The notes under the pieces were generated by a model, which was not told the DNA's origin, searched no databases, and saw only the letters and a list, made by a program, of their open reading frames with translations. Below, piece by piece: positions 21,874 through 39,366 of a DNA stretch of 64,000 bases. A program made the position numbers and the translations under genes. Numbering within the stretch: position 1 is the first letter of the stretch; each line of letters begins with the position of its first letter. Source of the DNA: an uncultured Chloroflexia bacterium (lineage in GTDB: Bacteria; Chloroflexota; Limnocylindria; Limnocylindrales; CSP1-4). The DNA lies in NCBI GenBank assembly GCA_963844945.1, contig CAWJQZ010000019.1, positions 48,775 to 112,774 of the forward strand, in the 5' to 3' direction.

Positions 21874-22290
21874 TCAGCGGCTGAAGGTGCGTCGCGCGCC
21901 GGGCATGAGCAGGTAGACGAGGATGATCGCCGGCGCGATCGACCCGGCCACAGCCATCGCGACGGTGGGGCCGCCGACCACGTAGCCCGCCACGTTCCCG
22001 ACGATGTGGAGCGCCGCGATGGCGATCGCGAGCCACCACGCCCAGCGGTGCCGGTCCCACAGGCCGAAGGCGACGAGGAAGTACAGGACCGCGCCCACGA
22101 GGCCGCCCACCCCGATGATCGAGCCGAACGGTCCCGTGTCGAGGCCCTGGTCGACCGGGCTGGAGACGGTGGCCGACGGGAACATCGTGAACGCCTCGAA
22201 GAAGGCGACGACGCTCCAGACGAGTGCGAGCATCGAGATGAGCGTGACCCCGATCGGGCGTTCGTCGAGCGACCGCTGCTCCTGCGTCAC
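21874..22290 (-). CDS. small polytopic membrane protein
   Basis: Intact 138-aa ORF with 4 predicted TM helices (LISMLALVWSVVAFF, IIGVGGLVGAVLYFLVAFGLW, WLAIAIAALHIVGNVAGYVV, AVAGSIAPAIILVYLL). Confidence 0.55.
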   Translation of the reverse strand: MTQEQRSLDERPIGVTLISMLALVWSVVAFFEAFTMFPSATVSSPVDQGLDTGPFGSIIGVGGLVGAVLYFLVAFGLWDRHRWAWWLAIAIAALHIVGNVAGYVVGGPTVAMAVAGSIAPAIILVYLLMPGARRTFSR

Positions 22291-22486
22291 CGGCGTCCCT
22301 CCTGCGTGGGGCCTCCTGCAGCCCCCACCGTCCGCGGCAGCGTGGCACGTCGCGCGGCGCGCCGCAAACGGCCCCTCCGCGGCCCTCCGCGACGCGACGC
22401 CGTGCCGAACGCGCCACGGGGCGTCCCGACGCGACGCCGTGGTACGGTGAAGGCGACGTCCGTCGTGCGCGACGGGCCGTCGGCGG

Positions 22487-22562
22487 GCGGGAGTAGCTCA
22501 GTCGGTAGAGCGTCAGCCTTCCAAGCTGAATGTCGCGGGTTCGAGACCCGTCTCCCGCTCCA
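22487..22562 (+). tRNA. tRNA-Gly (anticodon TCC), 76 nt with encoded CCA
   Basis: GCGGGAGTAGCTCAGTCGGTAGAGCGTCAGCCTTCCAAGCTGAATGTCGCGGGTTCGAGACCCGTCTCCCGCTCCA. Acceptor GCGGGAG/CTCCCGC, D-arm GCTCAGTCGGTAGAGC, anticodon loop CTTCCAA, T-arm GCGGGTTCGAGACCCGT. Confidence 0.93.
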
Positions 22563-22858
22563 GTTCCTCGGTTCCGTGGTCATGGCGACACTAAGCCTGC
22601 GATCACTGGACATCCGCACGGCTCGTTCCGTTCCGCTGAGCCGCCGAAGAGTGCCGCCACAACGCTCGCAGACACGCAGCCGCGCAGATTCTCGACCGTA
22701 TGGCGCCGTTGTGGCTTGCCTCCGCCCCGCTTACGGTGTCGACGCCGCCCGAACACTGAGCACTCCTCGCCGGTCGAAGCCTGAGCAACCCTGACGGTCT
22801 CGACTGGCACCCTCTCGCGATCGTCGTCAACGCCGGAACGACCGTCTACCGGGCGACC

Positions 22859-23728
22859 TTGGCAGCAGGCTGGACGGCAGCGCGGACGCGATGGTGCGCC
22901 GCGGCCGACTGGGCAGCCTCCATGCTCACCCTGGGCACCATGGTCCTCGCGTCGATCGTCATCGTGCTCGGCCCTGCGCCGGACCTCGAGGCGGCACGCT
23001 CCTTCGCGGTCGTCGTGCTGATCCTGGTCGGGGCCGCATGGCTCCTCCTCTCGCTGGTCTCTGCCCAGCGACGCCCGGCGGACGGCCGACTGCGGTCCCC
23101 GACGACGACCGGCACTGGCGGCCGAGCCTCGTCTGGCGCACGTTCGGGAGGCGAGCGGGAGGCATCGACGCGCGGCCCACACCCCGGCCGCCGGGACCGC
23201 GCCGAGCCACTGGCGAGACCGACCCGCACGACGGCGTCCCAGGAGGGTCTCGTGGAGTTGCTGACGTGGAGGCTCAGGGTATCGACACTGTGGATCTTCC
23301 TCGCTGTCGGCACGCTGGCCGCCTTCTTCGCTGTCGTTATGCCGGCGGACGTCCTGAGTGAGTACCTCGCGACCGGGCAACTCGAGGGCGAGGCGATGGA
23401 CGCCACGATGCTGGCCCTGATGGTCGGGCTGTTCGTCCTCCTGCCTCTGGCGATGGCCTTCCTCACGCTGGCGCTGAGGGATCCGGTCGACCGCTTGGCG
23501 AACGGCATCGTGGGTGCTCTCGCCGCTGTGATGTGGACGTGGGATCTGGCTGAGTCCGTGAGCAAGGAGCCCGCGATCAGCGGTGGGCCTGTCCTCACGG
23601 CGACCTTGATCCTTGCCGGGCTGCTGATCGTCTGGCACGCTTGGAAGTGGCCCAAGACGGCGGAGCAGGGCCTGCCCGGCCGGCGACCGGTGACCGGTCC
23701 CGACCTGGGAGCCGCCAAACCCGTGTAG
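22859..23728 (+). CDS. membrane protein ORF; probably two genes (short 2-TM ORF 22859-~23070 and a 4-TM protein from GTG 23252) separated by a duplicated leader element
   Basis: Continuous frame, but the middle R/G/S/T-rich stretch coincides with a 150-bp repeat that recurs upstream of the next gene. AGGAGG lies 5 nt upstream of GTG 23252. The downstream part (VELLTWRLRVSTLWIFLAVGTLAAFFAVV...) has 4 TM helices. Confidence 0.5.
   Translation: MAAGWTAARTRWCAAADWAASMLTLGTMVLASIVIVLGPAPDLEAARSFAVVVLILVGAAWLLLSLVSAQRRPADGRLRSPTTTGTGGRASSGARSGGEREASTRGPHPGRRDRAEPLARPTRTTASQEGLVELLTWRLRVSTLWIFLAVGTLAAFFAVVMPADVLSEYLATGQLEGEAMDATMLALMVGLFVLLPLAMAFLTLALRDPVDRLANGIVGALAAVMWTWDLAESVSKEPAISGGPVLTATLILAGLLIVWHAWKWPKTAEQGLPGRRPVTGPDLGAAKPV
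23075..23227 (+). promoter_or_regulatory. copy 1 of a duplicated ~150-nt structured leader ending 18 nt before the AGGAGG-GTG start at 23252
   Basis: CCGGCGGACGGCCGACTGCGGTCCCCGACGACG...GAGCGGGAGGCATCGACGCGCGGCCCACACCCCGGCCGCCGGGACCGCGCCGAGCCACTGGCGAGACCGACCCGC. About 85% identical to copy 2 outside a variable ~30-nt middle. Confidence 0.45.
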
Positions 23729-23851
23729 GCGGCAGGTCTCCAGCTGGAAGACGACAAGCAGGACGGCTCCGGCCTGCCCCGAGACGGGCGACCGGGGCCG
23801 TTTCGTGCGGGGCAGCGGGCCAGCGCGGCTCGGCGAGGCGTCCGGCGGACG

Positions 23852-23993
23852 GCTGACTGCCGTCCCCGACGACGCACGGCACTGGCGACGCGTGGCCCGA
23901 CGGCCGAGCATGACGGGCGAGCGGGAGGCTCTGACGCGCGGCCCACGTTCCGGCCGCCGGGACCGCGCCGAGCCACTGGCGAGACCGACCCGC
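23852..23993 (+). promoter_or_regulatory. copy 2 of the duplicated leader, ending 8 nt before the GGAGGG RBS of methyltransferase 24016
   Basis: Contains perfect hairpin GGACGGC-TGACT-GCCGTCC and the conserved 3-prime block GAGCGGGAGGCTCTGACGCGCGGCCCACGTTCCGGCCGCCGGGACCGCGCCGAGCCACTGGCGAGACCGACCCGC. Confidence 0.45.
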
Positions 23994-24015
23994 TCGCGCA
24001 CGGAGGGCCGCGCGA

Positions 24016-24698
24016 TGGGACTGCGCAGATCGTTCTGGCTGCCGTTCTTCGGGGTGCCGCGCGGTCCGCTCGGGTGGGTCGGCGCTCGGCTGCTGCCGAA
24101 GGTCGCCCGGCCCCTCTATGCGATGGTGGCCGGGCAGCTGGACCTCCGGCCCGACGATTCGTTGCTTGAGGTTGGCTGCGGCTCCGCGGGGTTGCTCGTC
24201 GAGCACGCCTCCCACGTCCGCCACGTCGCCGGCCTGGACGCATCGGAGATCCAGGTGGACATGGCCAGGAAGCGGCTGGCCGACCGCATCTCCGCTGGAA
24301 CGGCCGAGATCGTCCTTGGCAATGCGATGGCGCTGCCGTGGGAGGACGGCCACTTCAGCGTCGTCGCCTCGGTCAACTGCCTGAAGTTCGTCCCCGATCC
24401 CCCGAAAGCCCTGAGCGAGATGCATCGGGTCCTCGGTCCCGACGGACGGCTGGTGCTCACGATCGACAAGCAGGCCGACAAGTGGGGCCGGTCGGGCAAG
24501 ATCGACGCGTTCGGCCAGTGGCAGTGGAGCGTGGATGACATGCGGCGGATGGTGGAGGAGGCCGGCTTCGCCGACGTCTCCGTGGCCGATATGCCGACCA
24601 AGCTGGGCCTTCAGTTCGTCCGTGGCGCGAAGCGCGCGGCGATCCCCGCCGCGGAGGTCGCCGAGACGCCAGAGCTCGTCGGGGCGGCGCCACGGTGA
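24016..24698 (+). CDS. class I SAM-dependent methyltransferase (UbiE/COQ5-like)
   Basis: Intact. LEVGCGSAGLLVEHASHVRHVAGLDASEIQVDMARKRL...MALPWEDGHFSVVASVNCLKFVPDPPKALSEMHRVLGPDGRLVL. GGAGGG RBS 8 nt upstream of ATG 24016. Confidence 0.8.
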
Positions 24699-25201
24699 GC
24701 ACGCACCTGACCGGGGACCGCCGCGCCGGCACGCCGCGGCCGCCCTCCCACCGGATGATCCGTGCCTTCGGAGTCGTCCACCTCGCCGGCCATCGGCTCA
24801 CGGGCGGGAGGCTCGGGCTTTCGCGTCCGACTCCCGCCCGCTGGGGTCACATGTGCCTCACCACGACCGGGCGCAGAACAGGCAAGAAGCGGCACGCGAT
24901 GCTCGGCTACTTCGATGACGGCCGGAACCTGGTCGCGCTGGCCGTGAACGCATGGGCGGATGCCGAGCCCGCCTGGTGGCTCAACCTCCAGGCGCATCCC
25001 GACGCTATCGTCGAGCTCAAGGACGGATCTCGGCAGGTCAGGGCGCGCGCGGCGCAGGGCGAGGAGCGGGCGCGCCTCTGGGCGCGCTGGCGCGAGCTGG
25101 GAGAGCGGTCGGGCGTGGCCGAGATCGCCGACATGGATGCCTACACCGCCCAGTTGTCGCGCGAACCGGCGGTCGTGGTGCTGGAGCCGCAGCCCGGCTG
25201 A
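24695..25201 (+). CDS. deazaflavin(F420)-dependent nitroreductase-family protein (Ddn/DUF385-like)
   Basis: Intact. LTTTGRRTGKKRHAMLGYFDDGRNLVALAVNAWADAEPAWWLNLQAHPDAIVELKDG matches the PNPOx-like F420H2-dependent reductase fold. Confidence 0.7.
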   Translation: MSTHLTGDRRAGTPRPPSHRMIRAFGVVHLAGHRLTGGRLGLSRPTPARWGHMCLTTTGRRTGKKRHAMLGYFDDGRNLVALAVNAWADAEPAWWLNLQAHPDAIVELKDGSRQVRARAAQGEERARLWARWRELGERSGVAEIADMDAYTAQLSREPAVVVLEPQPG

Positions 25202-25249
25202 GGACCCTGGCGCGATCGCAGCGCGACCGCGCCAGGAGGAGGCGACGAG

Positions 25250-26071
25250 ATGAAGCCGTCGACGGATCCGGTCGGCATGTACGTGGAGGAGTCGGGGGCT
25301 CCGGGCTCTCCAGCCATCGTGTTCCTTCACGGCGCAGGCCAGAGCTGCCGGGAGTGGCGCGGGCATATGGCGGGCCTCCCAGCCTTCCACTGTCTGGCTC
25401 CGGACCTGCCCGGCCACGGTCGGAGCAACCATCTGCCGCTGCCTTCGCAGGAGCGCCTGGTCGATGACATCGCCGTGCTCATCGAGAGGCGGGTGCCCGC
25501 GGGACGCGCACACGTCGTGGGCATCTCGTGGGGTGCCAATCTCGCCCAGGTCCTCATCCGGCGGCACCCCGACCGCGTCGACCGCGTGGTCTCGGACGGC
25601 ACACTGATCGCCTGGCCGGGCGGCCTGGTGAGGACTCTGCTGCTCGGGTTCTACGCACTGATGGTGCCGTTCCTGCACACCCGGCCGGTGCGGGCGCTGT
25701 ATCGGGACATCGTGGACGCAGCGGACCTTCGCCTCGCGTCTCGCACGGCGTACTGGCGCGCCGTGCGGCAGTGCATGGAAGGCTTCGACGCCGTGACCGA
25801 GGCCCCATGCCCGACCCTGCTCGTCGCCGGGGAGAGGGAGGGCTACGTGCGGCCGCCCGACGCCGCGCTGGCCGCGGTCATGCCCCATGCCGAGGCCTGG
25901 TACGCACCCGGCCTGGATCACTGCTGGCAACGCAGGGCGCCGGACCTCCACATCCGGATGGTCGAGGCCTGGTGCACCGGCCAGGTGCTGCCACCCGGAC
26001 TCCGGCCCGAGCTGACGCCGAAGACCGAAGCGGTGGAGCGGATGCGACGGAACATCCCGGCAGGCGCCTGA
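25250..26071 (+). CDS. alpha/beta hydrolase
   Basis: Intact. IVFLHGAGQS...VVGISWGANLAQ (GxSxG nucleophile elbow). Confidence 0.75.
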   Translation: MKPSTDPVGMYVEESGAPGSPAIVFLHGAGQSCREWRGHMAGLPAFHCLAPDLPGHGRSNHLPLPSQERLVDDIAVLIERRVPAGRAHVVGISWGANLAQVLIRRHPDRVDRVVSDGTLIAWPGGLVRTLLLGFYALMVPFLHTRPVRALYRDIVDAADLRLASRTAYWRAVRQCMEGFDAVTEAPCPTLLVAGEREGYVRPPDAALAAVMPHAEAWYAPGLDHCWQRRAPDLHIRMVEAWCTGQVLPPGLRPELTPKTEAVERMRRNIPAGA

Positions 26072-26086
26072 CAGGAGGTCCGACCC

Positions 26087-26827
26087 ATGCGACTCGCCCC
26101 ATCGCTGCATCGGCTCGGCGAGGAGATCGTCAGCTGCTACCTCCTCGAGGAAGCCGGAGCGGTCACGATCATCGACGCGGGCGTGCCCGCCTACTACTCC
26201 GACCTGACGACCGAGCTCGCGGCCATGGGCCGGACGATCGAGGACGTCCAGGCGCTCGTGCTGACCCATGGCCACGACGACCATCGCGGGTTCGCCGAGC
26301 GGCTGCGAGTGGAGCACGACGTGCCCGTGAGCATCCACGTGCTCGACCGGGCGCTGGCACAGGGCGAGGTCGGGAACCCGAGCGCCGGCATGGGCGAGCG
26401 CAAGCTCGGTTCCCTGCTGCGCTACATGCTGTGGCTCATCCGTCACGGCGCGATGCGAACCAAGGCTCTGACGGCGGTCGGCACCTTCGACCCAGGCACG
26501 ACGCTCGACGTGCCGGGCGCGCTGCATGTCATCCACACACCAGGACACACGCCCGGCAGCGTCACGTTGTACGCGCCGGGACACGACGCCGTCTTCGTCG
26601 GCGATGCGTTGGCGACGGACGCCGTGATCAGCGAGCGGCACGGTCCGCAGATCTGTCCCTTCGCTGCCGACCCCGACGTGGCCCTTGCATCCCTGGCGAA
26701 CATCGAGCGGCTCGAGGCGCACTGGCTGCTGCCTGGACACGGCAGCCCCTGGACCGACGGCGTCGCGGCCGCCGTGGCCGCAGCGCGTGAGGTCGGGGTC
26801 GGACACTTGGCCCGCGCGAAACGCTGA
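26087..26827 (+). CDS. MBL-fold metallo-hydrolase
   Basis: Intact. LVLTHGHDDHRG (HxHxDH) and HTPGHTPGSV. Confidence 0.8.
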   Translation: MRLAPSLHRLGEEIVSCYLLEEAGAVTIIDAGVPAYYSDLTTELAAMGRTIEDVQALVLTHGHDDHRGFAERLRVEHDVPVSIHVLDRALAQGEVGNPSAGMGERKLGSLLRYMLWLIRHGAMRTKALTAVGTFDPGTTLDVPGALHVIHTPGHTPGSVTLYAPGHDAVFVGDALATDAVISERHGPQICPFAADPDVALASLANIERLEAHWLLPGHGSPWTDGVAAAVAAAREVGVGHLARAKR

Positions 26828-27207
26828 TCGGGCAGGGGACCTCACCCCGCCCACGCGCATCGCAAGCGCATGGCCCAAGCGGCCGAATAGGAGTAGCGGC
26901 CCGCCGGCGCGACCCTTGGGGGCCTTACGGCACGCCGGTCTGATCCACACCGGCTACCGGGTCTCCCTGCCTGTTGCGACGCCGGGTACGCCCGCGCCGT
27001 CACCGCCCCGTGAGCGGCGACGAGCCTGGCGCGGCCGGGATCACGCAGCGCGACCTCCTGATCGAGATGCGCGAGGACATCCAAGCGCCGCGCTCCGTCG
27101 CGGAATCCGCGGCCCGCGACCACCGCACATCGAGAAGCTGTCGGCGATGAAGGGAGCTCGCGACTCCTACCGGTCTGTCCGACGGCCGGCCATTGAGGGT
27201 CCGCTCC

Positions 27208-27358
27208 AGACACCAAAACTGGACGCCCTCCGCTCGCGTCCCCACGCTCGCCGTCACAGTGCTTCGGCGCCCCGGCCTTCCAAGCTGAATGTCGCGGGTT
27301 CGAGACCCGTCTCCCGCTCCAGTTCCCCGTTTCGTGCTCAGCACGACACGATAACTGG
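27208..27358 (+). repeat. att-like repeat A: degenerate P-arm, tRNA-Gly 3-prime half (27275-27321) and downstream flank with arm motif
   Basis: GCCTTCCAAGCTGAATGTCGCGGGTTCGAGACCCGTCTCCCGCTCCA is identical to tRNA-Gly positions 30-76, followed by GTTCCCCGTTTCGTGCTCAGCACGACACGATAACTGG. Confidence 0.85.
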
Positions 27359-27529
27359 GTGGCCCGCCTTCTGCGCGACGGGTCGAGGATGCCGAACCGA
27401 GTGCTGAAGCGCTCGGCCACACTCTGCCGGCATACCATCCTCCGAGATAGGCGGCGGCTCGCGACGTACGCTGTCCGTGTCGCGGACCGCGCTCCTTGCG
27501 CTGCGCCGCCATGGCTGCCGGAGAGTCCG

Positions 27530-28417
27530 ATGACTGACGTCCTGCCCTCGTGGAACGAGGGGACCGCCAAAGCGGCGATCGTCGGGTTCGTCACGGCGGC
27601 GACCACGGTCGGCGATTGTGCCTACATCGCGCCCGCCGACCGGATCGCCACGTTCGACAACGACGGCACGCTCTGGGTGGAGCAGCCCATGCCGCCCCAG
27701 TTCGACTTCCTGCTCCGGACGTGGACCACCGAGGCACAGGCGGACCCGTCCCTCGCGAGCCGGCAGCCGTACAAGGCCATCCTCGAGAAGGACCTCGCGT
27801 TCTTCGAGGGCCTCGTGACGCAGGACCCGACGGTCGTGGCGTCCCTGGAGGGCGCTGCCGGCCGGTCCTGGGCCGGCTCGACGCCGGACGTGTTCGATGC
27901 CCAGGTGCGCGACTGGATCGACACCGTCACGCAGCCGCGGTTCGGCGTCGGCTACACGCATCTCGTCTACCGGCCGATGCTCGAGCTGTTCGACTACCTC
28001 AAGGCGCACGACTTCCGGGTCTTCGTGTGCTCCGGCGGCGGCCGCGACTTCATGCGCGTGTTCGCCGAGGAGGCCTGGGGCATCTATCGCGAGGACGTCA
28101 TCGGCAGCGCGCCGGAGTACACCTACGCGGACGGGAGGATCGTCCGTACCGACCGGCTGCTCGGGGGCCTCGCCCTGGGTCCGGGCAAGCCCGAGCACAT
28201 CTTCGCCCGGACGGGCCGGCTGCCGGCCTTCGCGGGCGGGAACGCGGACGTCGACATCGAGATGCTCGAGACCGCGAGGTTCGCCTTGCTCGTGGACCAC
28301 GACGACCCGGAGCGCGAGTACGCCTACACGAAGGCCGCCGAGCGGTCGCTCGGAGCGGCCGCGAATCGCGGCTGGACCGTCGTGAGCATGAAGGACGACT
28401 GGGCGACGATCTTCTGA
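27530..28417 (+). CDS. HAD-superfamily hydrolase (phosphatase-like)
   Basis: Intact. ATFDNDGTLWVEQP (DxDGT motif I), VCSGGGRDFMR, FAGGNADVDIEML. Confidence 0.7.
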   Translation: MTDVLPSWNEGTAKAAIVGFVTAATTVGDCAYIAPADRIATFDNDGTLWVEQPMPPQFDFLLRTWTTEAQADPSLASRQPYKAILEKDLAFFEGLVTQDPTVVASLEGAAGRSWAGSTPDVFDAQVRDWIDTVTQPRFGVGYTHLVYRPMLELFDYLKAHDFRVFVCSGGGRDFMRVFAEEAWGIYREDVIGSAPEYTYADGRIVRTDRLLGGLALGPGKPEHIFARTGRLPAFAGGNADVDIEMLETARFALLVDHDDPEREYAYTKAAERSLGAAANRGWTVVSMKDDWATIF

Positions 28418-28429
28418 GGAGCGAGTCAC

Positions 28430-29074
28430 GTGGTCGACCTCACCGCCATCGACATCCTCGTCAACCCCGACAGGGAGACGCTCGAACGCGCACGCGAGCT
28501 CAACGCCCGCATGCGGCGGAGCGTGCCCACCGGCTTCGCGCTCGATGCGACGCACCAGCCCCACATCACGACCGTGCAGCGATACGTGCGGACGGCGGAC
28601 CTCACGACGGTCTACGACGCTGTCGAGATGACGATCGCCGCCACCGATGCGGCCTCGCTCGCGTATCGCGCCGTCGCGATCCGGCACGCGGACTGGGGTG
28701 TGCCCGGCGAGGGCCTCGCGGTCATCGTCATCGAGCCCAGCCCGCAGGTGCTCGACCTCCAGGCGCGCCTCCTCGCGGCCGTCACGCCCTTCGTCGGGTC
28801 CCGAGGCACCGCTGCGGCCTTCGTGACCGATCCGGGCGAGGAGATCAGCCAGAGCACCCGCGACTGGGTTGATGGGTACGTGCCCGACCAGATCGGCCCC
28901 GGGAAGTACATCGCCCACATCACGGTCGGGTTCGCCACGCTCGACGACCTGAAGGTCATCGAGGCCGAGCCGTTCGGCCCGTTCGACGTCCACCCGGCCA
29001 GCGTCGCCGTGTACCACCTGGGGAACAGCGGCGCCGCACGCACCCTGCTCAGGGAATGGAGCCTGCTGGCGTAG
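28430..29074 (+). CDS. 2H phosphoesterase superfamily protein (LigT/2'-5' RNA ligase-like cyclic phosphodiesterase)
   Basis: Intact. Two H-x-T-x motifs, QPHITTVQ and IAHITVGF, about 130 aa apart. Confidence 0.65.
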   Translation: MVDLTAIDILVNPDRETLERARELNARMRRSVPTGFALDATHQPHITTVQRYVRTADLTTVYDAVEMTIAATDAASLAYRAVAIRHADWGVPGEGLAVIVIEPSPQVLDLQARLLAAVTPFVGSRGTAAAFVTDPGEEISQSTRDWVDGYVPDQIGPGKYIAHITVGFATLDDLKVIEAEPFGPFDVHPASVAVYHLGNSGAARTLLREWSLLA

Positions 29075-29121
29075 CGCGGACGTCCCGCGGAGTGTCGCGG
29101 GCGATGCGCGAACCGGCCCGT

Positions 29122-29276
29122 GACGACACGATAACTGGACACGTTTCGCTCGGGCCCCTGAGCACGATGCTGTTACGCACAGCCGCCGAGGCCTGCCAAG
29201 CTGAATGTCGCGGGTTCGAGACCCGTCTCCCGCTCCACTTCCTCGGTTCGTGCTCAGCACGACACGATAACTGGAC
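29122..29276 (+). repeat. att-like repeat B (best preserved): arm motif, tRNA 3-prime half (29191-29237) and arm motif
   Basis: GACGACACGATAACTGGACACGTTTCGCTCGGGCCCCTGAGCACGATGCTGTTACGC...CCAAGCTGAATGTCGCGGGTTCGAGACCCGTCTCCCGCTCCA CTTCCTCGGTTCGTGCTCAGCACGACACGATAACTGGAC. Confidence 0.85.
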
Positions 29277-29436
29277 GGCCGACTATCTCGACGAGCGGGT
29301 GATGCGGCCGAAGCGCCTGCTGTAGCGCTGGCGAACGGGACAGATGCGTTCGCGACGAGCACCCGGATGGCCCAGTGCACGTCGCGTCCCGCTCCCCGGT
29401 GCCACGCCCCGGTGCCACGCCCGGTGCGACGCGGCG

Positions 29437-29855
29437 TCAGTAGGTGAAGCCCCGGTCGATCGTCTCTGGGGTCAGGATGAGGCCATGGGCGGAGTCCGCG
29501 ATGCTCACCTTCTCCCATCGTTCGTGCTTCGCCGCCCACGGCGAACTGGGGTCCGTGGGGCAGGACTCGGCAGGGGGTGCGGCGACGAGCGAGACCCGGG
29601 CGGCGACCGTGCCGTCGGTCCCGGCGACCGCCTGAGCGGCGGCCGTGGCTGTCCCCTCCGTCTTGCGGGAGGTGCTGGGCCCACAGCCGAGGTCGCCGCA
29701 CGGCTCGGGCGCGGTCCCGCAGATCCATTCGAGGATTTCGTACCTGCCCGCGGCATTGAGTGAGACGACTTCGCCGGGTGCTAGCCCGGTCACGGTGATC
29801 GAGAGTCGCAGGCGACCGTCCGTCTCACCGGAGTCTTCGACGGCGCCGGCCATGG
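29437..29855 (-). CDS. hypothetical protein
   Basis: 139-aa ORF MAGAVEDSGETDGRLRLSITVTGLAPGEVV... with strong GC3 codon bias. No recognised domain. Confidence 0.35.
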
Positions 29856-30680
29856 TGATCCCCGCCCGGCTGACGGAGGGCCAGCCCGCCAGACTCGGCG
29901 ATCGCGCCGGGTACGCCTTCACGCTGGTGAACGCGACGATGGCTGCCGTGGAGACGGGAGATTGGGATTGGCTGCAGGGTGAGATCGAGACAGCCGTGGA
30001 GACCGCGCCGGAGGACGTGGAGCGGGCGTTTCTGACGTGGAGTCGTCTCATGATCGGCTCCCTGCGTGGGGAGGATCTGGCCGGGGAAGGGCGCTGGCTC
30101 GAGGGGTTTCTCGGCGGCTCGGACGAGAAGTCGTGGCGCGACTGGATTCCCGAGGTGCGCTTCTGGGTCGCCTTCGGGGCGGGCCGGCTCTCCGAGGCCT
30201 ACGACGCAGCGACAGAAGTCGGGCACATCTACCCGGACGAAGCGAGCTGGTTCTCCCCCTACGCCGCCATCTGCGCGCTCTGGGAGCGCGACGGCGAGCG
30301 GGCGGCCGCCGCGCTCGCCGCCCTGGACGCGACCCGGGCACATGGACGCGTCGTCGACATGAACCGCCGGACGATCCGGGCCGGGCTCGCGGCGCTCGAG
30401 GGGCGTGCGGGAGATGCCATGTCGGCCTTCCGGGAGGCGCTCGCGGGCTGGCGCGACCTCGGCTCGCCCTGGCGCGAGGCGCTCACGGGGATCACCATGG
30501 CGACGCTGCTGGAGCCGGCCGATCCCGGAGGTTCGGTCGGCCGCGGGGACCGCCCGCGAGATCCTCGTCCGGCTCGAAGCCGCGTCGTTCATCGCCCGAC
30601 TCGACGCGGCCATGGCTCGTTCATCGGACCAGGCCGGTCAATTCGCCGCGCCAACGGCGGTCTCCGTCACGCCCCCGTGA
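29852..30680 (+). CDS. hypothetical helical (TPR/regulator-C-terminal-like) protein; frame disruption near 30540
   Basis: ERDGERAAAALAALDATRAHGRVVDMNRRTIRAGLAALEGRAGDAMSAFREALAGWRDLGSPWREAL resembles the TPR-like helical region of large ATPase/LuxR regulators. GC3 is lower than in the neighbours. Confidence 0.35.
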
Positions 30681-30830
30681 CGACACGACAACTGGACACG
30701 TTACGCTCGGGCCTCTGAGCACGGTGCTACAGCGCTCAGGCGTCCCGGCCTTCCAAGCTGAATGTCGCGGGTTCGAGACCCGTCTCCCGCTCCACTTCCC
30801 CGGTTTCGCGCTCAGCAGGACACGCAGCCT
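30678..30830 (+). repeat. att-like repeat C (tRNA fragment 30748-30794)
   Basis: GACGACACGACAACTGGACACGTTACGCTCGGGCCTCTGAGCACG...GGCCTTCCAAGCTGAATGTCGCGGGTTCGAGACCCGTCTCCCGCTCCACTTCCCCGGTTTCGCGCTCAGCAGGACACGCAGCC. Confidence 0.85.
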
Positions 30831-31033
30831 GATATCCGAGCGATGGCGGCAGGCTGCTTCGGCCGTCTGCCCGGGACCGCCTCGCCATGGCAGGTCCCTC
30901 CATTGCTGGCCAACGCGGCGGTCCGCCCCGGAACCCGGCGCAAGTCGGGTTGCCCCGCGACGAACCACCTTCCGGTAACGCCGCGCCTGGCCGAGCCGCC
31001 GGAGCCGTGCGAGTGGCTGCGGAGCGCATGACG

Positions 31034-33394
31034 CTACTGGCGGGCCATCACCAGGCGGAACCAGTCGTCCGGCGAGACGAGGTGGTCCGGGTCCTCGGCG
31101 TCCGCGCCGATGCTGATCGCCACCCGGTGCACCGTGCCCGTGAACCCGTTCTCGCCCGCGTCGTAGTCGTCGCTGACCGGCGTGCCGGTATCGGCCCCGA
31201 CATCGGTGGTCTCGTCGCCCGAGAAGATCATCGGCTCGGTGCCATCCACGCGGCCCTCGCCGACCTGCTCTCCGTCGACGTACAGCGTGACGGTTCCGCC
31301 CTTGGCGAGCCCGCCGCCGTCGTACGCGAACTCGGCACGCACCTGGTGCTCGCCGGCCGGGATCGCGCTCGCGCCGTAGACCTTGAACCGGCGCAGGCCG
31401 AACAGGTTGTAGCAGTACGCCGGCCGGCCCTCGACGAGGTACACGGCCCAGCCGCCGAACGCCGAGCCCTGGGCCACGACCACGCCCGACGCGCCCCCTT
31501 CCGGCACCGAGATATCCGCGGTGATCGAGTGGGACCGGTTCTTGATGCTGATGACCGACGCCTCGGACAGGCGCTGCATGCCGCCGTACAGGACCTGCGT
31601 CGTGCCGTGGATGAGCTGCGGCCGGCCGGCCAGGTCCGCGTTGAACCGCTCGATGCGCCGGTCGTCGAGGGGCAGCACGTTGTACTTCGCCGCCTCCTCG
31701 AGGAAGAGGGCCTGGAGCTCGGCGAGCTTGTCGGGCATCTCGGCGGCCAGGTCGTGCGCCTGGGTCCAGTCGTCGGGCCCGTAGAGCTCCCAGCGGTCGT
31801 CCGCGATCGGCGGCAGCGGCGCCACCACCCATGGTGTGGAGTGCCGGGTCACGGCGGTCCAGCCCTCGTGGTAGATGCCGCGGTTGACGAAGCACTCGAA
31901 GTACTGCGTCGTCCGCCGGTCGGGCGCGGCCGCGTCGTCGTACGTGTAGGCGAGAGACGTGCCGTGGAGCGGCATCTGCGGGATGCCGTTCACCGTGGTC
32001 GGTGCCGGGAGGCCGGCCGCCTCGAGGATCGTCGGCGCGAGGTCGATGACATGGTGGAACTGCGTCCGCACCTCGCCCCGGGCGGCGATCCGCGCCGGCC
32101 AGTGGACGACCATGCCGTTGCGCGTGCCGCCCCAGTGCGAGGCGACCTGCTTGGTCCACTGGTAGGGCGTGTCCATCGCGTGGGCCCAGCCCACGGCGAA
32201 GTGGTTGTACGCCGCCGGCCCGCCGAAGTCGTCGATGTGCGACGCCATGAACTCGGGCGTCTCGAGGGCCGCCGCCCCGTTGAACAGGAACATCTCGTTG
32301 AAGGAGCCGTTGAGCGTGCCCTCGCCCGACGCGCCGTTGTCGCCGACGATGTAGAAGACGAGCGTGTCGTCGAGGACGCCCAGGTCCTCGATCGCGTCGA
32401 TCAGGCGGCCGACGTGGTGGTCCACGTGCTCGAGGAAGCCCGCGTAGACCTCCATCTGCCGCGCCAGGATCGGCTTGAGCTCGTCGGGCATCGCGTCCCA
32501 GGCCGGGATCTCGGCCGGGCGGGCCGTCAGCTCGGCGTCGGGCGGCACGACGCCCAGCTCCTTCTGGCGGGCGAACATCCGCTCGCGAAGGGCGTCCCAG
32601 CCGTCGTCGAACCGGCCCTTGTACTTGTCGCTCCAGGGCGCGGGCACGTGGTGCGGTGCGTGCGTGGCGCCCGGAGCGAAGTAGGCGAAGAACGGCTTGT
32701 CGGGCGCGAGCGAGTGCGCCTGCCGGATCCACGTGATCGCGTGGTCGGTCAGGTCCTCGGTGAGGTGGTAGCCGTCCTCCGGGCTCCGAGGCGGCTCGAC
32801 GGGCGTCGTGCCGCTGTACAGAGCCGGGTAGTACTGGTTGGACTCGCCGCCGATGAAGCCGTAGAAGTGCTCGAACCCGCCGCCGCCGGTCGGCCAGGCG
32901 TCGAACGGGCCGATCGGGCTCGTCTCCCAGACCGGGACTTCGTGGCACTTGCCGAACTGCGCCGTGCTGTACCCGTTGAGGCGCAGGACCTCGGCGATCG
33001 GGGCCGCTGCCTTGGGCCGGATCGAGCTGTAGCCCGGCGCCGAGGTCGCGACCTCCGGCACGGCGCCCATGCCCACGGCGTGGTGGTTGCGGCCGGTCAG
33101 CATCGCCGACCGGGTGGGGGCGCACAGCGACGTCGTGTGGAAGCGGTTGTAGCGGAGGCCGCCTGCGGCGAGCCGGTCGGCGGTCGGCGTTGCGACCGGG
33201 CCGCCGAAGGTGCCCGCGGCGCCGAAGCCGACGTCGTCGAGCAGGACGATGAGGACGTTCGGCGCGCCCTTCGGCGGCCGCAGCGGCTCGATCGGGGGGA
33301 ACGTGGCGCCCGGATCCTTGGCGTCCAACGCGGTGGACGGGGCCACGGGCCGGTCGGCGATGGGCAGGACGTCGCGCAGGAGATCGCCGCTCAT
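31034..33394 (-). CDS. arylsulfatase (type I sulfatase, Cys-type)
   Basis: Intact 786 aa. SLCAPTRSAMLTGRNHH (C-x-P-x-R formylglycine motif), GKCHEVPV..., a large AtsA-like protein. Confidence 0.85.
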   Translation of the reverse strand: MSGDLLRDVLPIADRPVAPSTALDAKDPGATFPPIEPLRPPKGAPNVLIVLLDDVGFGAAGTFGGPVATPTADRLAAGGLRYNRFHTTSLCAPTRSAMLTGRNHHAVGMGAVPEVATSAPGYSSIRPKAAAPIAEVLRLNGYSTAQFGKCHEVPVWETSPIGPFDAWPTGGGGFEHFYGFIGGESNQYYPALYSGTTPVEPPRSPEDGYHLTEDLTDHAITWIRQAHSLAPDKPFFAYFAPGATHAPHHVPAPWSDKYKGRFDDGWDALRERMFARQKELGVVPPDAELTARPAEIPAWDAMPDELKPILARQMEVYAGFLEHVDHHVGRLIDAIEDLGVLDDTLVFYIVGDNGASGEGTLNGSFNEMFLFNGAAALETPEFMASHIDDFGGPAAYNHFAVGWAHAMDTPYQWTKQVASHWGGTRNGMVVHWPARIAARGEVRTQFHHVIDLAPTILEAAGLPAPTTVNGIPQMPLHGTSLAYTYDDAAAPDRRTTQYFECFVNRGIYHEGWTAVTRHSTPWVVAPLPPIADDRWELYGPDDWTQAHDLAAEMPDKLAELQALFLEEAAKYNVLPLDDRRIERFNADLAGRPQLIHGTTQVLYGGMQRLSEASVISIKNRSHSITADISVPEGGASGVVVAQGSAFGGWAVYLVEGRPAYCYNLFGLRRFKVYGASAIPAGEHQVRAEFAYDGGGLAKGGTVTLYVDGEQVGEGRVDGTEPMIFSGDETTDVGADTGTPVSDDYDAGENGFTGTVHRVAISIGADAEDPDHLVSPDDWFRLVMARQ

Positions 33395-33695
33395 GTTGTC
33401 GCTCCATCCGGCAGGTGGGTGTCTGGGTCAGTGATACGACTCATTTTAGGCGCGCACTGTCCCGTTCAGGCCCCGCCGCTTGCGCGGCAGGTCGCGCCAC
33501 CGATGAGACGGGTCAGGCCGGCCACCGGTGGCGCCCCCGGTCGACGTCGATCACTCCAGCAAGACTCGCCCCGGCCGGCCAGAGGCGTTCGGCATGAAGG
33601 TCGAGCGCGAGATATCAGGCGAGGCGGTGGGGCGGTAACGTCTCGGCAACCACGGTCATCGCGACCGACCACGACCAGGGCTCCAGCATCCCCCG

Positions 33696-33847
33696 CGACG
33701 ACACGATGACTGGACACGTTTCGCCCGGGCCCCTGAGCACGATGCTGTTGCGCCTAGGCGCCGGTGGCCTTCCAGACTGGATGTCGCGGGTTCGAGACCC
33801 GTCTCCGGCTCCACTTCCCCGGTTCGTGCTCAGCACGACACGCAGCC
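33696..33847 (+). repeat. att-like repeat D (tRNA fragment 33767-33823, 4 substitutions)
   Basis: GACGACACGATGACTGGACACGTTTCGCCCGGGCCCCTGAGCACGATGCTGTTGCGC...GCCTTCCAGACTGGATGTCGCGGGTTCGAGACCCGTCTCCGGCTCCACTTCCCCGGTTCGTGCTCAGCACGACACGCAGCC. Confidence 0.8.
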
Positions 33848-34307
33848 AACAGCGGTCGGACGCCCGCGCGGCTGGTCTTGCCCCTCTCAGCCGGGCCGTG
33901 TCGCTGCCGCAACGCTTCGGGACACTGAGCCTCGGAGTCGAAGCGACCGCCGGTCGTGAGCGCAGTCGTGTGTACGGCACCGCTGAGGCCGCGAACGACG
34001 ACGCCGGTGCGGGAGTCGTCGGTCCGTGGAGCGGCGACACGGGCTGCGATCCCGCCGGAGCCTGGTTGCGCCGACTCGGCGCGCCTCAAGGGGCATGCGC
34101 GTGGGTCAACCGGGCTGGCACCAACGCCCGCGCCGTTGGGCGAGGCCGTACTCATCTTCTTCTCATCGAGCGCTCACCCCACGACGACCCCGCGGCCATA
34201 CGGTCACCGGGATAGACGCGGGAGGCGTTGACGCACGGTCCCCGACCTGGTCGCCTTGGATCGTGCCGAGCCAATGGCGAGACCGCCCCGCACCGGGAGG
34301 TACACAG

Positions 34308-34772
34308 ATGCGCTCGACTCGCAAGTTCGCCTCGGTGGCCAGCACCTTCGCCGCGGCCGCCCTCCTCGGGGCGACGGTCCTGACCCTCGCTCCACCCGCG
34401 CTGGCATCGACGCCACGGTACGGCAACCTCCACGTCGTGAAGGAGTGCACGGCCTACACCGGTGCCGCCGGCGGCTACTGCACCGTCACGTCTTCGAACG
34501 TCCCCGCGATCAAGGTCGGCTCGAAGATCGTCTACGGGCAGGCGGCCGGCGCGACCGCGCTCAACAGCGACATCGTCCTCACGTCCGGGGCCGGCAACAG
34601 CGCGATCGGCCACTGCTACCTCGGCTTCGCGGATGGCCTGGGGCTCTGCACGATCGCGGGCGGGACCGGCTCATTCGCCGGGTTCGAGGCGAGCGTCACC
34701 GTGACCGCGAGCTCCACCGTCACGAAGGGCTGGAACTGGGACGGCACGTACAGCTTCGACAAGATCAACTGA
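34308..34772 (+). CDS. small secreted Cys-containing protein (hypothetical)
   Basis: Signal peptide MRSTRKFASVASTFAAAALLGATVLTLAPPALA. Four Cys residues in the mature part. Gly/Ala/Thr-rich. Confidence 0.55.
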   Translation: MRSTRKFASVASTFAAAALLGATVLTLAPPALASTPRYGNLHVVKECTAYTGAAGGYCTVTSSNVPAIKVGSKIVYGQAAGATALNSDIVLTSGAGNSAIGHCYLGFADGLGLCTIAGGTGSFAGFEASVTVTASSTVTKGWNWDGTYSFDKIN

Positions 34773-34821
34773 GGCGGGACTGGCCGCCGCGCACTCCACG
34801 TCAGCCAAAGGAACGATCGCC

Positions 34822-35139
34822 GTGCATGTCCAGATCGTCATCTTCAAGCTGAAGGACCTGAGCGACACCGACTACCGCCGCACCTGCGAGGAATCGGCGC
34901 CCGCCTTCTCCGAGATACCCGGCCTGCTTTCGAAGGTCTGGCTCGCCGACGAGCGGACGAACACGTACGGCGGTGTCTACACCTGGGTCGACCGAGCCGC
35001 GATGGAGGCGTACGTCCAGAGCGACCTCTTCAAGGCCATCGCGGCAGATCCGGACTTCACCGACATCACGTCGCGGGACTTCGACATCATCGAGGGTCCG
35101 ACCCGCGTGACGTCGGGCATGATCGCCGTCCCCGGATGA
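34822..35139 (+). CDS. YdhR/Dabb-like putative monooxygenase (dimeric alpha+beta barrel)
   Basis: MHVQIVIFKLKDLSDTDYRRTCEESAPAFSEIPGLLSKVWLADERTNTYGGVYTWVDRAAMEAYVQSDLF. Confidence 0.6.
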   Translation: MHVQIVIFKLKDLSDTDYRRTCEESAPAFSEIPGLLSKVWLADERTNTYGGVYTWVDRAAMEAYVQSDLFKAIAADPDFTDITSRDFDIIEGPTRVTSGMIAVPG

Positions 35140-35186
35140 TCGACACGACGCACCGGCCGCATTGACATGGCGCCCACACTCATCCG

Positions 35187-37127
35187 ATGAACCGGACCGT
35201 TCGCCAGCTGATGGAAGAGCGGACCACAGAGCTCGTCGGACGCGACGACGAGAGGGCCGTACTCCGGCATCTGATGGGCGAGGATGGCCCGATCGTCGTG
35301 TTCGTGTACGGCATCGCCGGCGTCGGCAAATCATCCCTCGTCGACGCCTTCGCTGTCGAGGCGCGCGACGGCGGCACAGCTGTGGTGCGTCTCGATTGCC
35401 GGGCGGTCGAGCCGACGGAACGCGGATTCCTCGCCGCCCTCGAAGCCGCGATCGGTGGCGAGCTCACGACCGCAGAGGCTGCGGCTGCCCGGCTCGGCAG
35501 TCTTGCCGACCGGGTCGTCCTGGTTCTCGACACGTACGAGCTGCTCCGGATGCTGGATTCATGGCTGCGACAGGCGTTCGTCGTCGCGCTGACCGACAAC
35601 GTGCGGATCGTCCTCGCCGGCCGCGACCCGCCGATGACCGGCTGGCCGAGCGAGCTCGGAGGGCTGTTCCGCAGCGTCCCGCTCGGCAGCCTGTCGCGCG
35701 AGCACGCCGAGGCGTTCCTCCGCCAGGTCGGCGTCGATAGGTCGGATGCCGCCCGGATCAACCACGTTGCGCGAGGGCATCCGCTGTCCCTGAGGCTCGC
35801 CGCGTCGGCAATGGCAGAGCGACCCGACATCAGCGTGGATGCCGTCACGGTGAAGGCGATCGTGGAGGAGCTGACGGAGCTGTACCTCGAGGGCCTCGAC
35901 CCGCTGACTCGCGGGGCCCTCGATGCCGCCGCCGTCATCCGCCGCCCGACGCTCTCGCTCCTTGCGGCCATGCTGCCCGAAGCCGGTCCACAGGACGCCT
36001 TCGATCGTCTGCGGCGGCTCCCGTTCGTCGAGACGGACTACGACGGGCTCCTCCTGCACGACACCGTCCGCGAAGCCGTGGCAGCGATCCTCCGGTCGTC
36101 CGATCCCGACCGCTCCCGGCGGTATCGCGGCGCTGCCTGGCGCCAGCTCCGCGAGGAGGTCGCCCACGCGACGAGCCAGGAGATGTGGCGCTACACCGCC
36201 GACCTGCTGTACATCCTCCAGAACCCGATCGTCCGTGAGTCGTTCTTCCCCACGAGCGATCACATGTACTCCGTGGAGACGGCGACGCCGAGTGACGCCC
36301 GGCCGATCGCCGAGATCGTCGGACGATACGAGGGAACCGCCTCGGCTTCGGTCGTCGACGCATGGTGGCGACATGCCCCCGATGTCTTCCGGGTGGCTCG
36401 CGATCGCCTGGGTGGTGTCGCAGGCTTCTACGTCGTCTGCCAGGTCGACCGCATCACTCATCGTCTCGTCGAGGCCGACCCGGTCGCCCGTCGCTGCTGG
36501 GAGCACCTGCGGGCCCAGCCGATCCCGCGAGGTCAACGGGTCCTGTTCTGCCGCTTCATGCTCGCTCGTGAGTACGGCGAGTCACCCTCGCCCGTGCAGG
36601 CGGCCATGTGGCTCGACCTCAAGCGCTACTACATGGAGCTTCGGCCCGGCCTCCGGCGCATCTACTCGACCCTGAAGGACGTGGCGACGTGGGGTCCGAT
36701 CGTCGCCCCGCTCGGCTTCGAGGTCCTGCCGGGCGACCCGCTCGAGTTCGACGGCTCGCCCTACTACACGGCGGTCCTCGACTTCGGGCCTTCGTCGGTG
36801 GATGGCTGGCTCGCGAAGATCATCGCCGCGGAGCTCCAGATCAAGGATGATTCGATCCTCGATCTCGTGCAGCGTCAGCTCGTGCTCGACGGCCGCCGGA
36901 TCGACCTGACGCGGCTCGAGTTCCAGGTGCTCGACTACCTCTACCAGCGACGGGGGACCGCCGTCGAGCGATCGGCGCTCCTGCGCGACGTGTGGGGCTA
37001 TGACTACGCCGGCGGCAGCAACGTGATCGAGACACTCGTGCGATCGCTCCGACGGAAACTCGGCGACCGCGCCACCTCGATCGAGACCGTCCGCGGCATC
37101 GGCTACAGGTTCGTGCCAGCCGGCTGA
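35187..37127 (+). CDS. transcriptional regulator: N-terminal P-loop ATPase plus C-terminal OmpR/PhoB-type winged helix (trans_reg_C)
   Basis: Intact 646 aa. Walker A GIAGVGKSS, Walker B-like VLVLDTYE. C-terminus LEFQVLDYLYQRRGTAVERSALLRDVWGYDYAGGSNVIETLVRSLRRKLGDRATSIETVRGIGYRFV. Confidence 0.7.
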   Translation: MNRTVRQLMEERTTELVGRDDERAVLRHLMGEDGPIVVFVYGIAGVGKSSLVDAFAVEARDGGTAVVRLDCRAVEPTERGFLAALEAAIGGELTTAEAAAARLGSLADRVVLVLDTYELLRMLDSWLRQAFVVALTDNVRIVLAGRDPPMTGWPSELGGLFRSVPLGSLSREHAEAFLRQVGVDRSDAARINHVARGHPLSLRLAASAMAERPDISVDAVTVKAIVEELTELYLEGLDPLTRGALDAAAVIRRPTLSLLAAMLPEAGPQDAFDRLRRLPFVETDYDGLLLHDTVREAVAAILRSSDPDRSRRYRGAAWRQLREEVAHATSQEMWRYTADLLYILQNPIVRESFFPTSDHMYSVETATPSDARPIAEIVGRYEGTASASVVDAWWRHAPDVFRVARDRLGGVAGFYVVCQVDRITHRLVEADPVARRCWEHLRAQPIPRGQRVLFCRFMLAREYGESPSPVQAAMWLDLKRYYMELRPGLRRIYSTLKDVATWGPIVAPLGFEVLPGDPLEFDGSPYYTAVLDFGPSSVDGWLAKIIAAELQIKDDSILDLVQRQLVLDGRRIDLTRLEFQVLDYLYQRRGTAVERSALLRDVWGYDYAGGSNVIETLVRSLRRKLGDRATSIETVRGIGYRFVPAG

Positions 37128-37180
37128 CGCGTGCTCAGCTCCGATGCGGCAAGAGAGGGTCAGCGCCGTGGCCGCGTACG

Positions 37181-37337: not shown

Positions 37338-37369
37338 AGTCCCGTCGACACTCAGGACGGCCGGATCGA

Positions 37370-39353: not shown

Positions 39354-39366
39354 CGTCAGCGCGCCC

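Follow-up and report, generated by a model that had tools for sequence, protein, structure and literature searches.

Tycheposon islands, described in Prochlorococcus (Hackl et al.; bioRxiv 10.1101/2020.12.28.424599), are islands of flexible genes adjacent to tRNA genes in which tyrosine-recombinase elements leave partial tRNAs behind. Newer arrivals displace older ones outward, partial tRNAs are scattered through the islands, and each element, with its integration and replication modules, has an integrase of its own (bioRxiv 10.1101/2020.12.28.424599). The tycheposon island is the closest described concept to the locus analysed here, a 64-kb window (the whole stretch of Chloroflexia DNA under study; G+C 73%) in which an intact tRNA-Gly(TCC) gene is followed, on the same strand, by a series of ~165-bp repeats built around copies of the 3′ part of the tRNA. 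The two are alike in being tRNA-adjacent islands with serial partial-tRNA repeats and niche-type accessory cargo and, in one related locus (L014), in an element that carries both an integrase and an AAA_25 gene. In the window and its relatives, however, integrase-less cassettes of ~1.6 kb dominate, set in dense arrays and each provided with a conserved two-armed site of ~165 bp, and a recombinase with a replication module is found in the L014-type element only, ~190 cassettes having neither. The host here is Limnocylindria and the target tRNA-Gly TCC, and the likeness is one of description. A full-text literature search found no account of such arrays in Limnocylindria, nor of tRNA-fragment-bounded cassette arrays anywhere.

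Integrative elements that target tRNA genes include an anticodon-loop sublocation class, served by lambda/L5-type integrases, and Williams reportedly included this sublocation in a classification of 2002. The present locus shares with such classical elements an identity block that runs from the anticodon loop to the tRNA 3′ end, an intact tRNA at one junction, and a direct element common to the two arms. Classical elements have their own integrase near the att site, whereas here one is found only in rare first elements (L047, L014), and the N-terminal arm-binding domain of lambda/L5-type integrases is lacking in the candidate enzyme. Cis-mobilizable elements (CIMEs) are regarded as deletion derivatives of integrative and conjugative elements or integrative and mobilizable elements and are usually single, and integrative mobile elements exploiting Xer (IMEXs) use XerCD at dif. 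These, too, are site-bounded segments that lack a recombinase and rely on one encoded elsewhere; they differ from the many small tandem cassettes found here at a tRNA gene, and the candidate recombinase scores 145 bits against the XerC/XerD equivalogs, for which the cut-off is 335.

We favour, with a probability of about 0.65, the reading that the locus is an attP-like cassette array formed by serial site-specific recombination at the tRNA-Gly anticodon loop, its integrase-less cassettes being served in trans. Strand exchange by a tyrosine recombinase would take place within the 7-nt anticodon loop. Each cassette, in circular form, would carry one attP-like site, in the order right arm, genes, left arm and core, and on entering the tRNA gene would rebuild the tRNA with its own 3′ part. 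Each entry would push older cassettes outward, so that each internal repeat would be a hybrid of the arms of two neighbouring cassettes, and recombination between any two repeats could excise, delete, duplicate or reshuffle cassettes. The enzyme would come in trans from a candidate Xer-like two-domain family, supplied either by an autonomous first element or by a copy resident beside the tRNA 5′ end, and an 18-mer 50 bp to the left of the core, together with a half-related element 19-20 bp to the right of the tRNA end, may aid the recombination complex.

An intact tRNA-Gly gene and its composite repeats

The intact tRNA-Gly(TCC) gene at 22487-22562 (+) is the single real tRNA of the window by both ARAGORN and Rfam (72.7 bits). 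It is the attachment site that heads the array and acts as an attL-type junction. Its 3′ part, a 47-nt stretch (GCCTTCCAAGC...CTCCA) that begins two bases before the anticodon loop and ends with CCA, recurs six times downstream on the same strand. Each copy has a conserved left arm of ~70 nt in front of it and, in most cases, a right arm of ~40 nt behind it, the whole making a repeat of ~165 bp. A unit profile made from related copies (nhmmer) adds two features to these six, a decayed seventh copy and a left-arm remnant without a core.

Repeat A (27196-27360, +; nhmmer E=1e-38) combines a diverged left arm with a tRNA part at 27275-27321 and a right-arm motif at 27343-27360. In repeat B (29115-29277, +; E=5e-45) the tRNA part at 29191-29237 lies between a left-arm motif at 29123-29140 and a right-arm motif at 29259-29276. 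Repeat C (30671-30834, +; E=2e-48) has the motif at 30680-30697 and the tRNA part at 30748-30794, and repeat D (33691-33849, +), detected by motif search and the nhmmer profile, has them at 33698-33715 and 33767-33813. Repeat E (37181-37319, +; E=3e-27) has a tRNA part at 37245-37291, a decayed right arm and a left arm which, with that of A, forms a separate diverged subtype. Repeat F (40504-40628, +; motif search and nhmmer profile) retains the motif at 40508-40525 and a decayed tRNA part at 40576-40622; its right arm is not recognisable and a GC-rich hairpin follows. Repeat G (50489-50541, +; nhmmer E=3e-6 and reading of the sequence) is a decayed seventh tRNA-Gly 3′ part that lacks the motif and has a degenerate right arm. 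Because G lies ~10 kb past F, the island is at least 28 kb long and F is not its outer boundary. The idea that the GC hairpin flank of F is the ancestral tRNA flank was dropped once the seventh fragment at 50489 turned up.

The 18-mer motif, ACGACACGATAACTGGAC, has six matches in the window at up to three mismatches, all on the + strand (0 expected) and confined to the co-oriented repeats 3′ of tRNA-Gly, and no match was obtained in any of 100 dinucleotide shuffles of the window. The motif that the original prediction, made by inspection of this DNA, had noted is real. In B, C, D and F it forms the outer edge of the left arm, and in A and B it is found in the right arm. The prediction had also placed the motif on both sides of a tRNA fragment in direct orientation, and this is what is seen at 29122-29283, which is repeat B, with exact copies flanking the 47-nt tRNA-Gly part; the left-arm sequences proposed for B, C, D and F were likewise correct on re-reading. 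Its right-arm motif in A to D stands in full for A and B, whereas C and D hold CTCAGCA(G/C)GACACGCAGCC, with only ACGACAC/GACACG in common. The degenerate motifs that it noted 3′ of the native tRNA are better described as a canonical right arm followed by a coreless left-arm remnant. The right arm (22563-22599, +; GTTCCTCGGTTCCGTGGTCATGGCGACACTAAGCCTG, also given as GGCGACACTAAGCCTG) fits the right-arm consensus and belongs to the tRNA-proximal cassette. The decayed remnant (22600-22668, +; CGATCACTGGACA...GCTCG...CTGAGC...CACAACGCTC) is matched by nhmmer at unit profile positions 24-76 (E=0.1) and shares direct repeat D15 with the arm of repeat F. The element common to both arms, in direct orientation, is CACGACAC followed by GATAACTG or TCAGCCTG.

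The geometry of the arms is conserved across 166 related loci. In these and the window, 297 motif matches at up to two mismatches lie on the array strand and only 3 on the opposite strand; 265 of the 297 are in arm positions, 257 in left arms and 8 in right arms. At the same stringency the motif is present in 199 of 225 distinct units (88%), a frequency biased upward by a discovery pattern that required ACTGGAC at a distance of 45-55 nt from the core; this selection did not apply to the remaining fragments of those loci. The gap from motif to core is exactly 50 nt in 175 of the 199 motif-bearing units (88%). The GACACGATAACTGGACACG block is near-invariant across units, the positions between it and the core vary freely, and the left arm presents the pattern GACACG-ATAACTG-GACACG fixed at -50. 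In the right arm, CACGACAC occurs in 116 of 260 units, of which 106 have it at +19/20 after CCA. The element is mostly followed by TCAGCC, and GATAACT, which completes the full 18-mer as in A and B of the window, follows in only 7 of the 116, so that the full 18-mer is a minority variant among right arms. Retention of the motif and of its fixed 50-nt distance in 88% of units across many species indicates purifying selection. The 18-mer is a near-invariant block of the left arm in a ~165-bp composite recombination-site repeat, and its fixed position points to a putative accessory protein-binding site that may help to assemble or direct a recombination complex.

The original prediction had further suggested that the repeat could be transcribed as a structured RNA, and an account of this kind, in which the repeat is expressed as a tRNA-like RNA (a regulatory RNA, processing signal or decoy) and the arms are RNA helices, can draw on several features. 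The sequence allows small hairpins (CGTGC-TCA-GCACG and GCTC-N8-GAGC), the unit includes a T-arm, and two insertion-bearing full-length tRNA-Gly copies in relatives score as tRNA (45-50 bits). When 81 units were folded with RNAalifold, however, only tRNA-derived pairs were obtained, with a covariation term of 0.04 and no compensatory change in 10 pairs. The folding energies of the arms are ordinary (mean z -0.3 and -0.7), native half-hairpins show no gain in stability over combinations of halves from different copies (p=0.15, p=0.42), and in the right-arm palindrome CGTGC-NNN-GCACG the breaks are concentrated on one side. Repeat fragments of the window and 17 related loci fall below the Rfam tRNA threshold, and ARAGORN calls no fragment of the window a tRNA, only the native gene. 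Expression as a structured RNA, which thus finds no support in covariance folding, z-scores, half-swaps, palindrome counts or Rfam, is very improbable, and the arms are best read, from their sequences, as conserved DNA sequence blocks. Column-wise mutual information was considered as a sign of base pairing and set aside, the signal coming mostly from two linked arm alleles (CACGAGGG vs TGAGCACG).

Exchange of cassettes at the repeats

The repeats occur in 53 loci in bacterial genomes sampled at one genome per species, nearly all of them metagenome-assembled genomes (MAGs) labelled Chloroflexi, Chloroflexia or Candidatus Limnocylindrales/Limnocylindria from fens, peat and soils, and at least 120 metagenome loci show the pattern. 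The arm-plus-core pattern had 0 matches in IMG/VR viral contigs, and in a blastn search of phage and plasmid collections with repeat B the tRNA part alone was matched, the arms being present in no known phage or plasmid. The closest relative among the loci found is MAG MFD00032.bin.2.129 (L004, L010, L033; hereafter CAVQVT), which is ~93% identical to the window in shared segments. The 166 loci hold 311 fragments and 44 intact tRNA-Gly genes; the copies are co-oriented in every locus, and the intact gene is the first copy in all 44 of the arrays that include one. Spacing between repeats (n=189) has a median of 1608 bp and an interquartile range (IQR) of 1162-2170 bp, and arrays reach a density of 7 units per 15 kb. 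Short contigs with the Limnocylindria-type repeat also occur in MAGs labelled Verrucomicrobiota, Spirochaetaceae, Anaerolineaceae and Cellulomonas (L012, L032, L045 and L051), for which mis-binning is more likely than cross-phylum spread.

Comparison of these arrays reveals that cassettes are shuffled and that the repeats are where they are joined. Homology between homologous cassettes in different genomes stops at the repeats and the neighbours differ, as they do in 18 of 20 comparisons made with the 39 homologous cassette pairs that are less than 98% identical. The left arm moves with the cassette upstream of it (76-92% identity, vs 28-79% for the preceding arm), as expected of a permuted attP (right arm, genes, left arm) that crosses over in the tRNA core. 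Of 25 homology breakpoints between loci with an identity of 98.5% or more, 23 lie at -130 to +135 of a core start (9.4% expected), and 7 of 13 right ends of homology fall exactly at the tRNA 3′ end. Near-identical cassettes are found in different contexts in backgrounds otherwise 99-100% identical. One pair of loci (L055 and L138) has everything in common from the second cassette onward and differs in the cassettes adjoining the intact tRNA, and in CAVQVT a single cassette is triplicated at 98.5-99% identity.

The cargo is diverse, with 68 Pfam families in 88 proteins and none in more than two, and genes are oriented without bias (47 plus, 46 minus). Pfam scans of 88 cassette and 117 flank proteins gave no recurrent recombinase among the top 25 families, and single occurrences were therefore checked by local search; no integrase and no remnant of the AAA_25 replication gene was found in ~190 cassettes of the related loci. 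The window itself contains no tyrosine recombinase detectable with Pfam (~40 open reading frames, ORFs), with jackhmmer seeded with IntA, lambda Int, L5 Int and XerD and run on every ORF of at least 70 aa, or with tblastn using the relatives' integrases, the tblastn matches being only artefacts from ORFs that overlap the tRNA. Since neither the window nor the ~190 cassettes contain an integrase, the repeats are junctions of integrase-less cassettes and not the attP of a resident element.

These observations also bear on whether the repeats might be fossil scars, that is, attR remnants of full-size integrative elements that later lost their mobility genes, leaving immobile cassettes and non-functional arms. 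Autonomous elements do occur at the same tRNA, with an integrase in L047 and L014, the latter with AAA_25, and degraded integrases in L041 and L078; repeats A, E, F and G of the window and the arm-only remnant are evidently decaying, and tycheposon islands are described as gathering partial tRNAs and degenerated elements. Scars of this origin are nevertheless hard to reconcile with ~190 cassettes that are free of integrase and AAA_25 remnants, with a cassette size centred tightly on 1.6 kb, with a motif that 88% of units keep at its fixed distance in many species, or with the near-identical cassettes in different contexts, and we consider this origin unlikely.

Homologous recombination alone could also move cassettes, the integrations being old and the present shuffling, duplication and loss being RecA-dependent exchange between core and motif blocks with no dedicated recombinase. 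The breakpoints do lie at the longest invariant stretches, the 47-nt core and a 21-nt motif block, and most arrays have no linked integrase. Left unexplained would be the conservation across species of the 18-mer and its exact spacing amid freely varying neighbours, the preference of new cassettes for the intact-tRNA side (L055 vs L138), and the source of novel cassettes with ready-made arms. The conserved motif spacing, remnant-free cassettes and near-identical cassettes in different contexts weaken this proposal as they do that of fossil scars, and we judge it quite improbable. In one comparison of 99.9%-identical backgrounds (L062 2696 vs L142 3721), homology starts exactly at the outer edge of the 18-mer, the entire left arm being identical and the upstream cassettes unrelated, a sign that the motif itself, and not the tRNA core, may be where some exchanges take place.

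Tyrosine recombinases beside tRNA genes in relatives

A local jackhmmer search of 173 loci detected tyrosine recombinases in 8, and in every case the gene directly adjoins the tRNA or one of the tRNA-Gly fragments of the array. In L047/L162 and L078 the integrase lies immediately 3′ of the tRNA and is co-oriented with it, with a degraded copy in L041; the integrases of L041 and L078 are both degraded. A 97.5%-identical integrase opens the L014 contig, and the L014 element also has the AAA_25 helicase-type gene, for which no other homologue was found in any locus searched. In L150 and L111 the integrase is ~170-250 bp upstream of the tRNA and divergent, and in L128 a distant homologue (27% identity) stands right after a fragment. 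Upstream (L150) and downstream (L047) integrases are 53% identical.

The candidate family has 4797 matches at E<=1e-20, with members of ~316 aa (300-345 aa) in which ~30 residues precede a SAM-like core-binding domain (residues 33-110) and a catalytic domain (132-298), with no N-terminal arm-binding domain. The enzyme is a simple, Xer-like two-domain tyrosine recombinase in the sense of a published classification (PMC8138268), in which heterobivalent integrases are defined by an N-terminal arm-binding domain. It is not an integron integrase: integrase P0001 scores 51 bits against TIGR02249, for which the cut-off is 265, and does not match PRK15417.

Of nine further members, those of L185 and L188 lie divergently beside tRNA-Gly(TCC) with an array, and those of L186, L187 and L183/L184 do so without one. 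Integrases at 62% identity lie beside tRNA-Lys in L191, where no array was found, and beside tRNA-His in L190. In L189 the integrase is at the contig end with AAA_25 adjoining and no tRNA in the available sequence. L180 is a special case, in which the integrase-adjacent tRNA is interrupted right after the anticodon loop: a segment with ECF-sigma and Kelch genes (7308-10951) cuts the tRNA-Gly there and has at its far end the truncated start of an integrase, then a spacer and a complete tRNA. The reciprocal tRNA 5′-half fragment ends ...CCTTCCAAG, and the identity of array fragments starts at GCCTTCCAA. This cut places strand exchange in the anticodon loop. The anatomy of the repeats and its conservation, their order and orientation, the shuffling of cassettes with breakpoints at the repeats, the lack of recombinase and replication genes in cassettes and the recombinases beside the tRNA in some relatives are direct observations; the site of strand exchange, mobilisation in trans and the identity of the motif-binding protein are what we infer. 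The L180 segment is a mirror-image element that supplies a tRNA 5′ half; on the far side of the other divergent integrases, a search over 10 kb for displaced tRNA 5′ halves, which could have assigned these integrases to 5′-side islands, found none. In other loci, the genes met most often upstream of tRNA-Gly are those for Kelch and ECF-sigma proteins.

The original prediction had read the tRNA-derived core and its repeated arm motifs as the classic arm-site layout of attP and had offered co-localisation of the motif with an integrase gene as a check. Much of that layout is present, namely a tRNA core that starts from the anticodon loop, conserved arms, a shared direct element, an adjoining intact tRNA and recombinases at the same tRNA in relatives. 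The arm-type sites themselves fare less well, with no integrase in the window or in the ~190 cassettes elsewhere, an arm-binding domain missing from the candidate enzyme, and the full 18-mer in only the minority of right arms noted above. As to co-localisation, the motif is tied to the arms of tRNA fragments, as the array-strand matches show, and the integrase is found in only the 8 of 173 loci.

Several of these points, and others, weigh against the serial site-specific recombination that we favour. The window has no recombinase, so that activity in this genome is only putative, and of the 20 arrays whose sequence extends 1.2 kb or more upstream, only 2 have an upstream integrase. A candidate integrase without an arm-binding domain makes a classical arm-type site doubtful, and the frequency of the motif among fragments is partly an ascertainment effect of the discovery pattern. 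The two longest invariant blocks are where the breakpoints lie (the core and, once, in L062 vs L142, the motif edge), a pattern that ordinary homologous recombination would also give, and circular intermediates and empty sites were not observed directly.

Integrons provide the other comparison. Like integron cassettes, those described here are small, diverse, recombinase-less and mostly single- or few-gene units between recurring sites, with insertion favouring the side of the primary site. In L150, L185, L188 and L111 a divergent, simple two-domain tyrosine recombinase stands beside the primary site and the array follows. Complete, empty (L186, L187, L183) and integrase-less (the window) forms can be recognised, which recall the CALIN (clusters of attC sites lacking an integron-integrase) and In0 forms of integrons. 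The divergent adjacent integrase of integrons is, in contrast, absent from the window and from 18 of the 20 arrays with upstream sequence, and the integrase, where present, is not IntI. The site is a tRNA fragment with arms that is conserved in sequence, whereas attC is a palindrome conserved in structure and folded from single-stranded DNA. The primary site is a functional tRNA gene, the cassettes carry their own riboswitches, and the near-equal numbers of genes in the two orientations speak against the logic of a common Pc-type promoter.

We tentatively suggest, as a possibility of less than even probability, that the arrays represent an undescribed gene-capture platform in Limnocylindria, analogous to the integron and mechanistically distinct from it. 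tRNA-Gly would be the primary site, the Xer-like two-domain enzyme would often be divergent from it, and hundreds of integrase-less cassettes of 1-2 kb would be expressed from their own signals and joined at a double-stranded site of ~165 bp, the platform existing in complete, empty and integrase-less versions. The site would then consist of a decayed or replaced tRNA 5′ region from the 18-mer onward, the tRNA 3′ half and the right arm. If cassettes do move as units, this would be a second, independently evolved route to arrays of exchangeable accessory genes, with a tRNA gene as landing pad, and would explain part of the accessory-gene variation in an abundant uncultured lineage of soil, peat and freshwater Chloroflexota. 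It would also provide a signature (the 18-mer 50 nt before a tRNA-Gly half) for harvesting flexible genes from metagenomes, and a compact recombinase/site pair for probing directionality without an arm-binding domain.

Several features of the integrase-bearing loci may be added. L014 (5425-5530, +) and L047 (1253-1358, -) contain full-length tRNA-Gly copies in which an inserted hairpin of ~33 nt separates the D-arm from the anticodon stem. The copies are preceded by ACACGATAACTG and situated at the right end of integrase-bearing elements; these are the copies that score 45-50 bits as tRNA in Rfam. They suggest that the left arm of the cassettes may descend from a tRNA 5′ half. A firmer equation of the left arm with a decayed tRNA 5′ half, based on the D-arm-like GCTC-N8-GAGC and the 33-nt insertion in the 5′ half of the integrase-bearing elements, was not retained, the resemblance being too weak to claim. 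The spacers between integrase and tRNA (L150 4090-4237; L185, L186, L187, L188, L183, L190 and L191) contain two or three direct repeats of ~25 nt, the last abutting the tRNA, of the types TAyAGTTATACGCTGTAsG.GAGC at tRNA-Gly and GAATCAyGTGCTsTAA..GAGC at tRNA-Lys and tRNA-His. These could be integrase sites or tandem tRNA promoters; the arm motif, when reverse-complemented, resembles the spacer sequence CAGTTATaCGcTGT. Beyond the divergent integrase, on its far side, many genes are of defence type, among them AbiEii, Abi_C, GmrSD, McrB-like, Fic, a UvrD/PD-(D/E)XK protein and a methyltransferase (L185 10986-20924; L180 11029-17753; L188 10341-14385; L189 2213-11092), and a defence island on the tRNA 5′ side may have its end at the integrase.

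Contents of the cassettes in the window

The repeats of the window delimit segments of unrelated accessory genes, on either strand, that measure 1.4-4.7 kb up to F and ~10 kb from F to G. According to Pfam and Rfam, the first segment (22669-27195) contains two c-di-GMP-II-GAG aptamers with their downstream genes, a SAM methyltransferase, an F420H2-dependent quinone reductase family protein, an alpha/beta hydrolase and a metallo-beta-lactamase-fold protein, and has no recombinase. Cassette 2 (27361-29114; Pfam) encodes a HAD-like hydrolase and a protein that matches the 2′-5′ RNA ligase (2H) superfamily weakly, below threshold. Cassette 3 (29278-30670; Pfam and sequence comparison) encodes unknown proteins and is a chimera, its 5′ part being 94% identical to cassette 1 of CAVQVT and its 3′ part 82% identical to the end of cassette 5 of CAVQVT. 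Pfam identifies a sulfatase on the - strand in cassette 4 (30835-33690). Cassette 5 (33850-37180; Pfam and Rfam) has a c-di-GMP-II-GAG aptamer with its gene, a YdhR-like monooxygenase and a STAND NTPase fused to a Trans_reg_C regulator domain, and cassette 6 (37320-40503; Pfam) a MarR regulator, an ABC-2 permease and an ABC ATPase, all on the - strand. The older segment from F to G (40629-50488; Pfam), with an acyltransferase-SGNH protein, a luciferase-like monooxygenase and other genes, is rearranged in content relative to CAVQVT.

Within the ABC-transporter genes of cassette 6, the stretch 38541-39686 is 94% identical to a CAVQVT stretch (L004, merged coordinates 22128-24000) that lies outside the recognised array of that genome. 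There it is joined directly to a homologue of window 44712-45430, a rearrangement between close relatives.

The ARAGORN call of a 91-nt tRNA-Ala(CGC) at 54642-54732 (-) is probably a false positive; Rfam finds no tRNA there, and the opposite strand is part of a long frame of high G+C at third codon positions with TPP-enzyme domains.

The three c-di-GMP-II-GAG aptamers of the window (RF03169; 23149-23233, 23915-23999 and 34212-34297, all +) score 68-77 bits against a gathering score of 40 and are located within cassettes, 5′ of small unknown genes and a methyltransferase. The first two are part of a tandem paralogous unit of 766 bp (repeat D5), and 7 further aptamers are found in 136 kb of related arrays (including L029, L008, L013, L004 and L010). 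c-di-GMP-II-GAG is an orphan aptamer class that rides on mobile cassettes, and this tie between the riboswitch class and the cassettes may help in finding its ligand.

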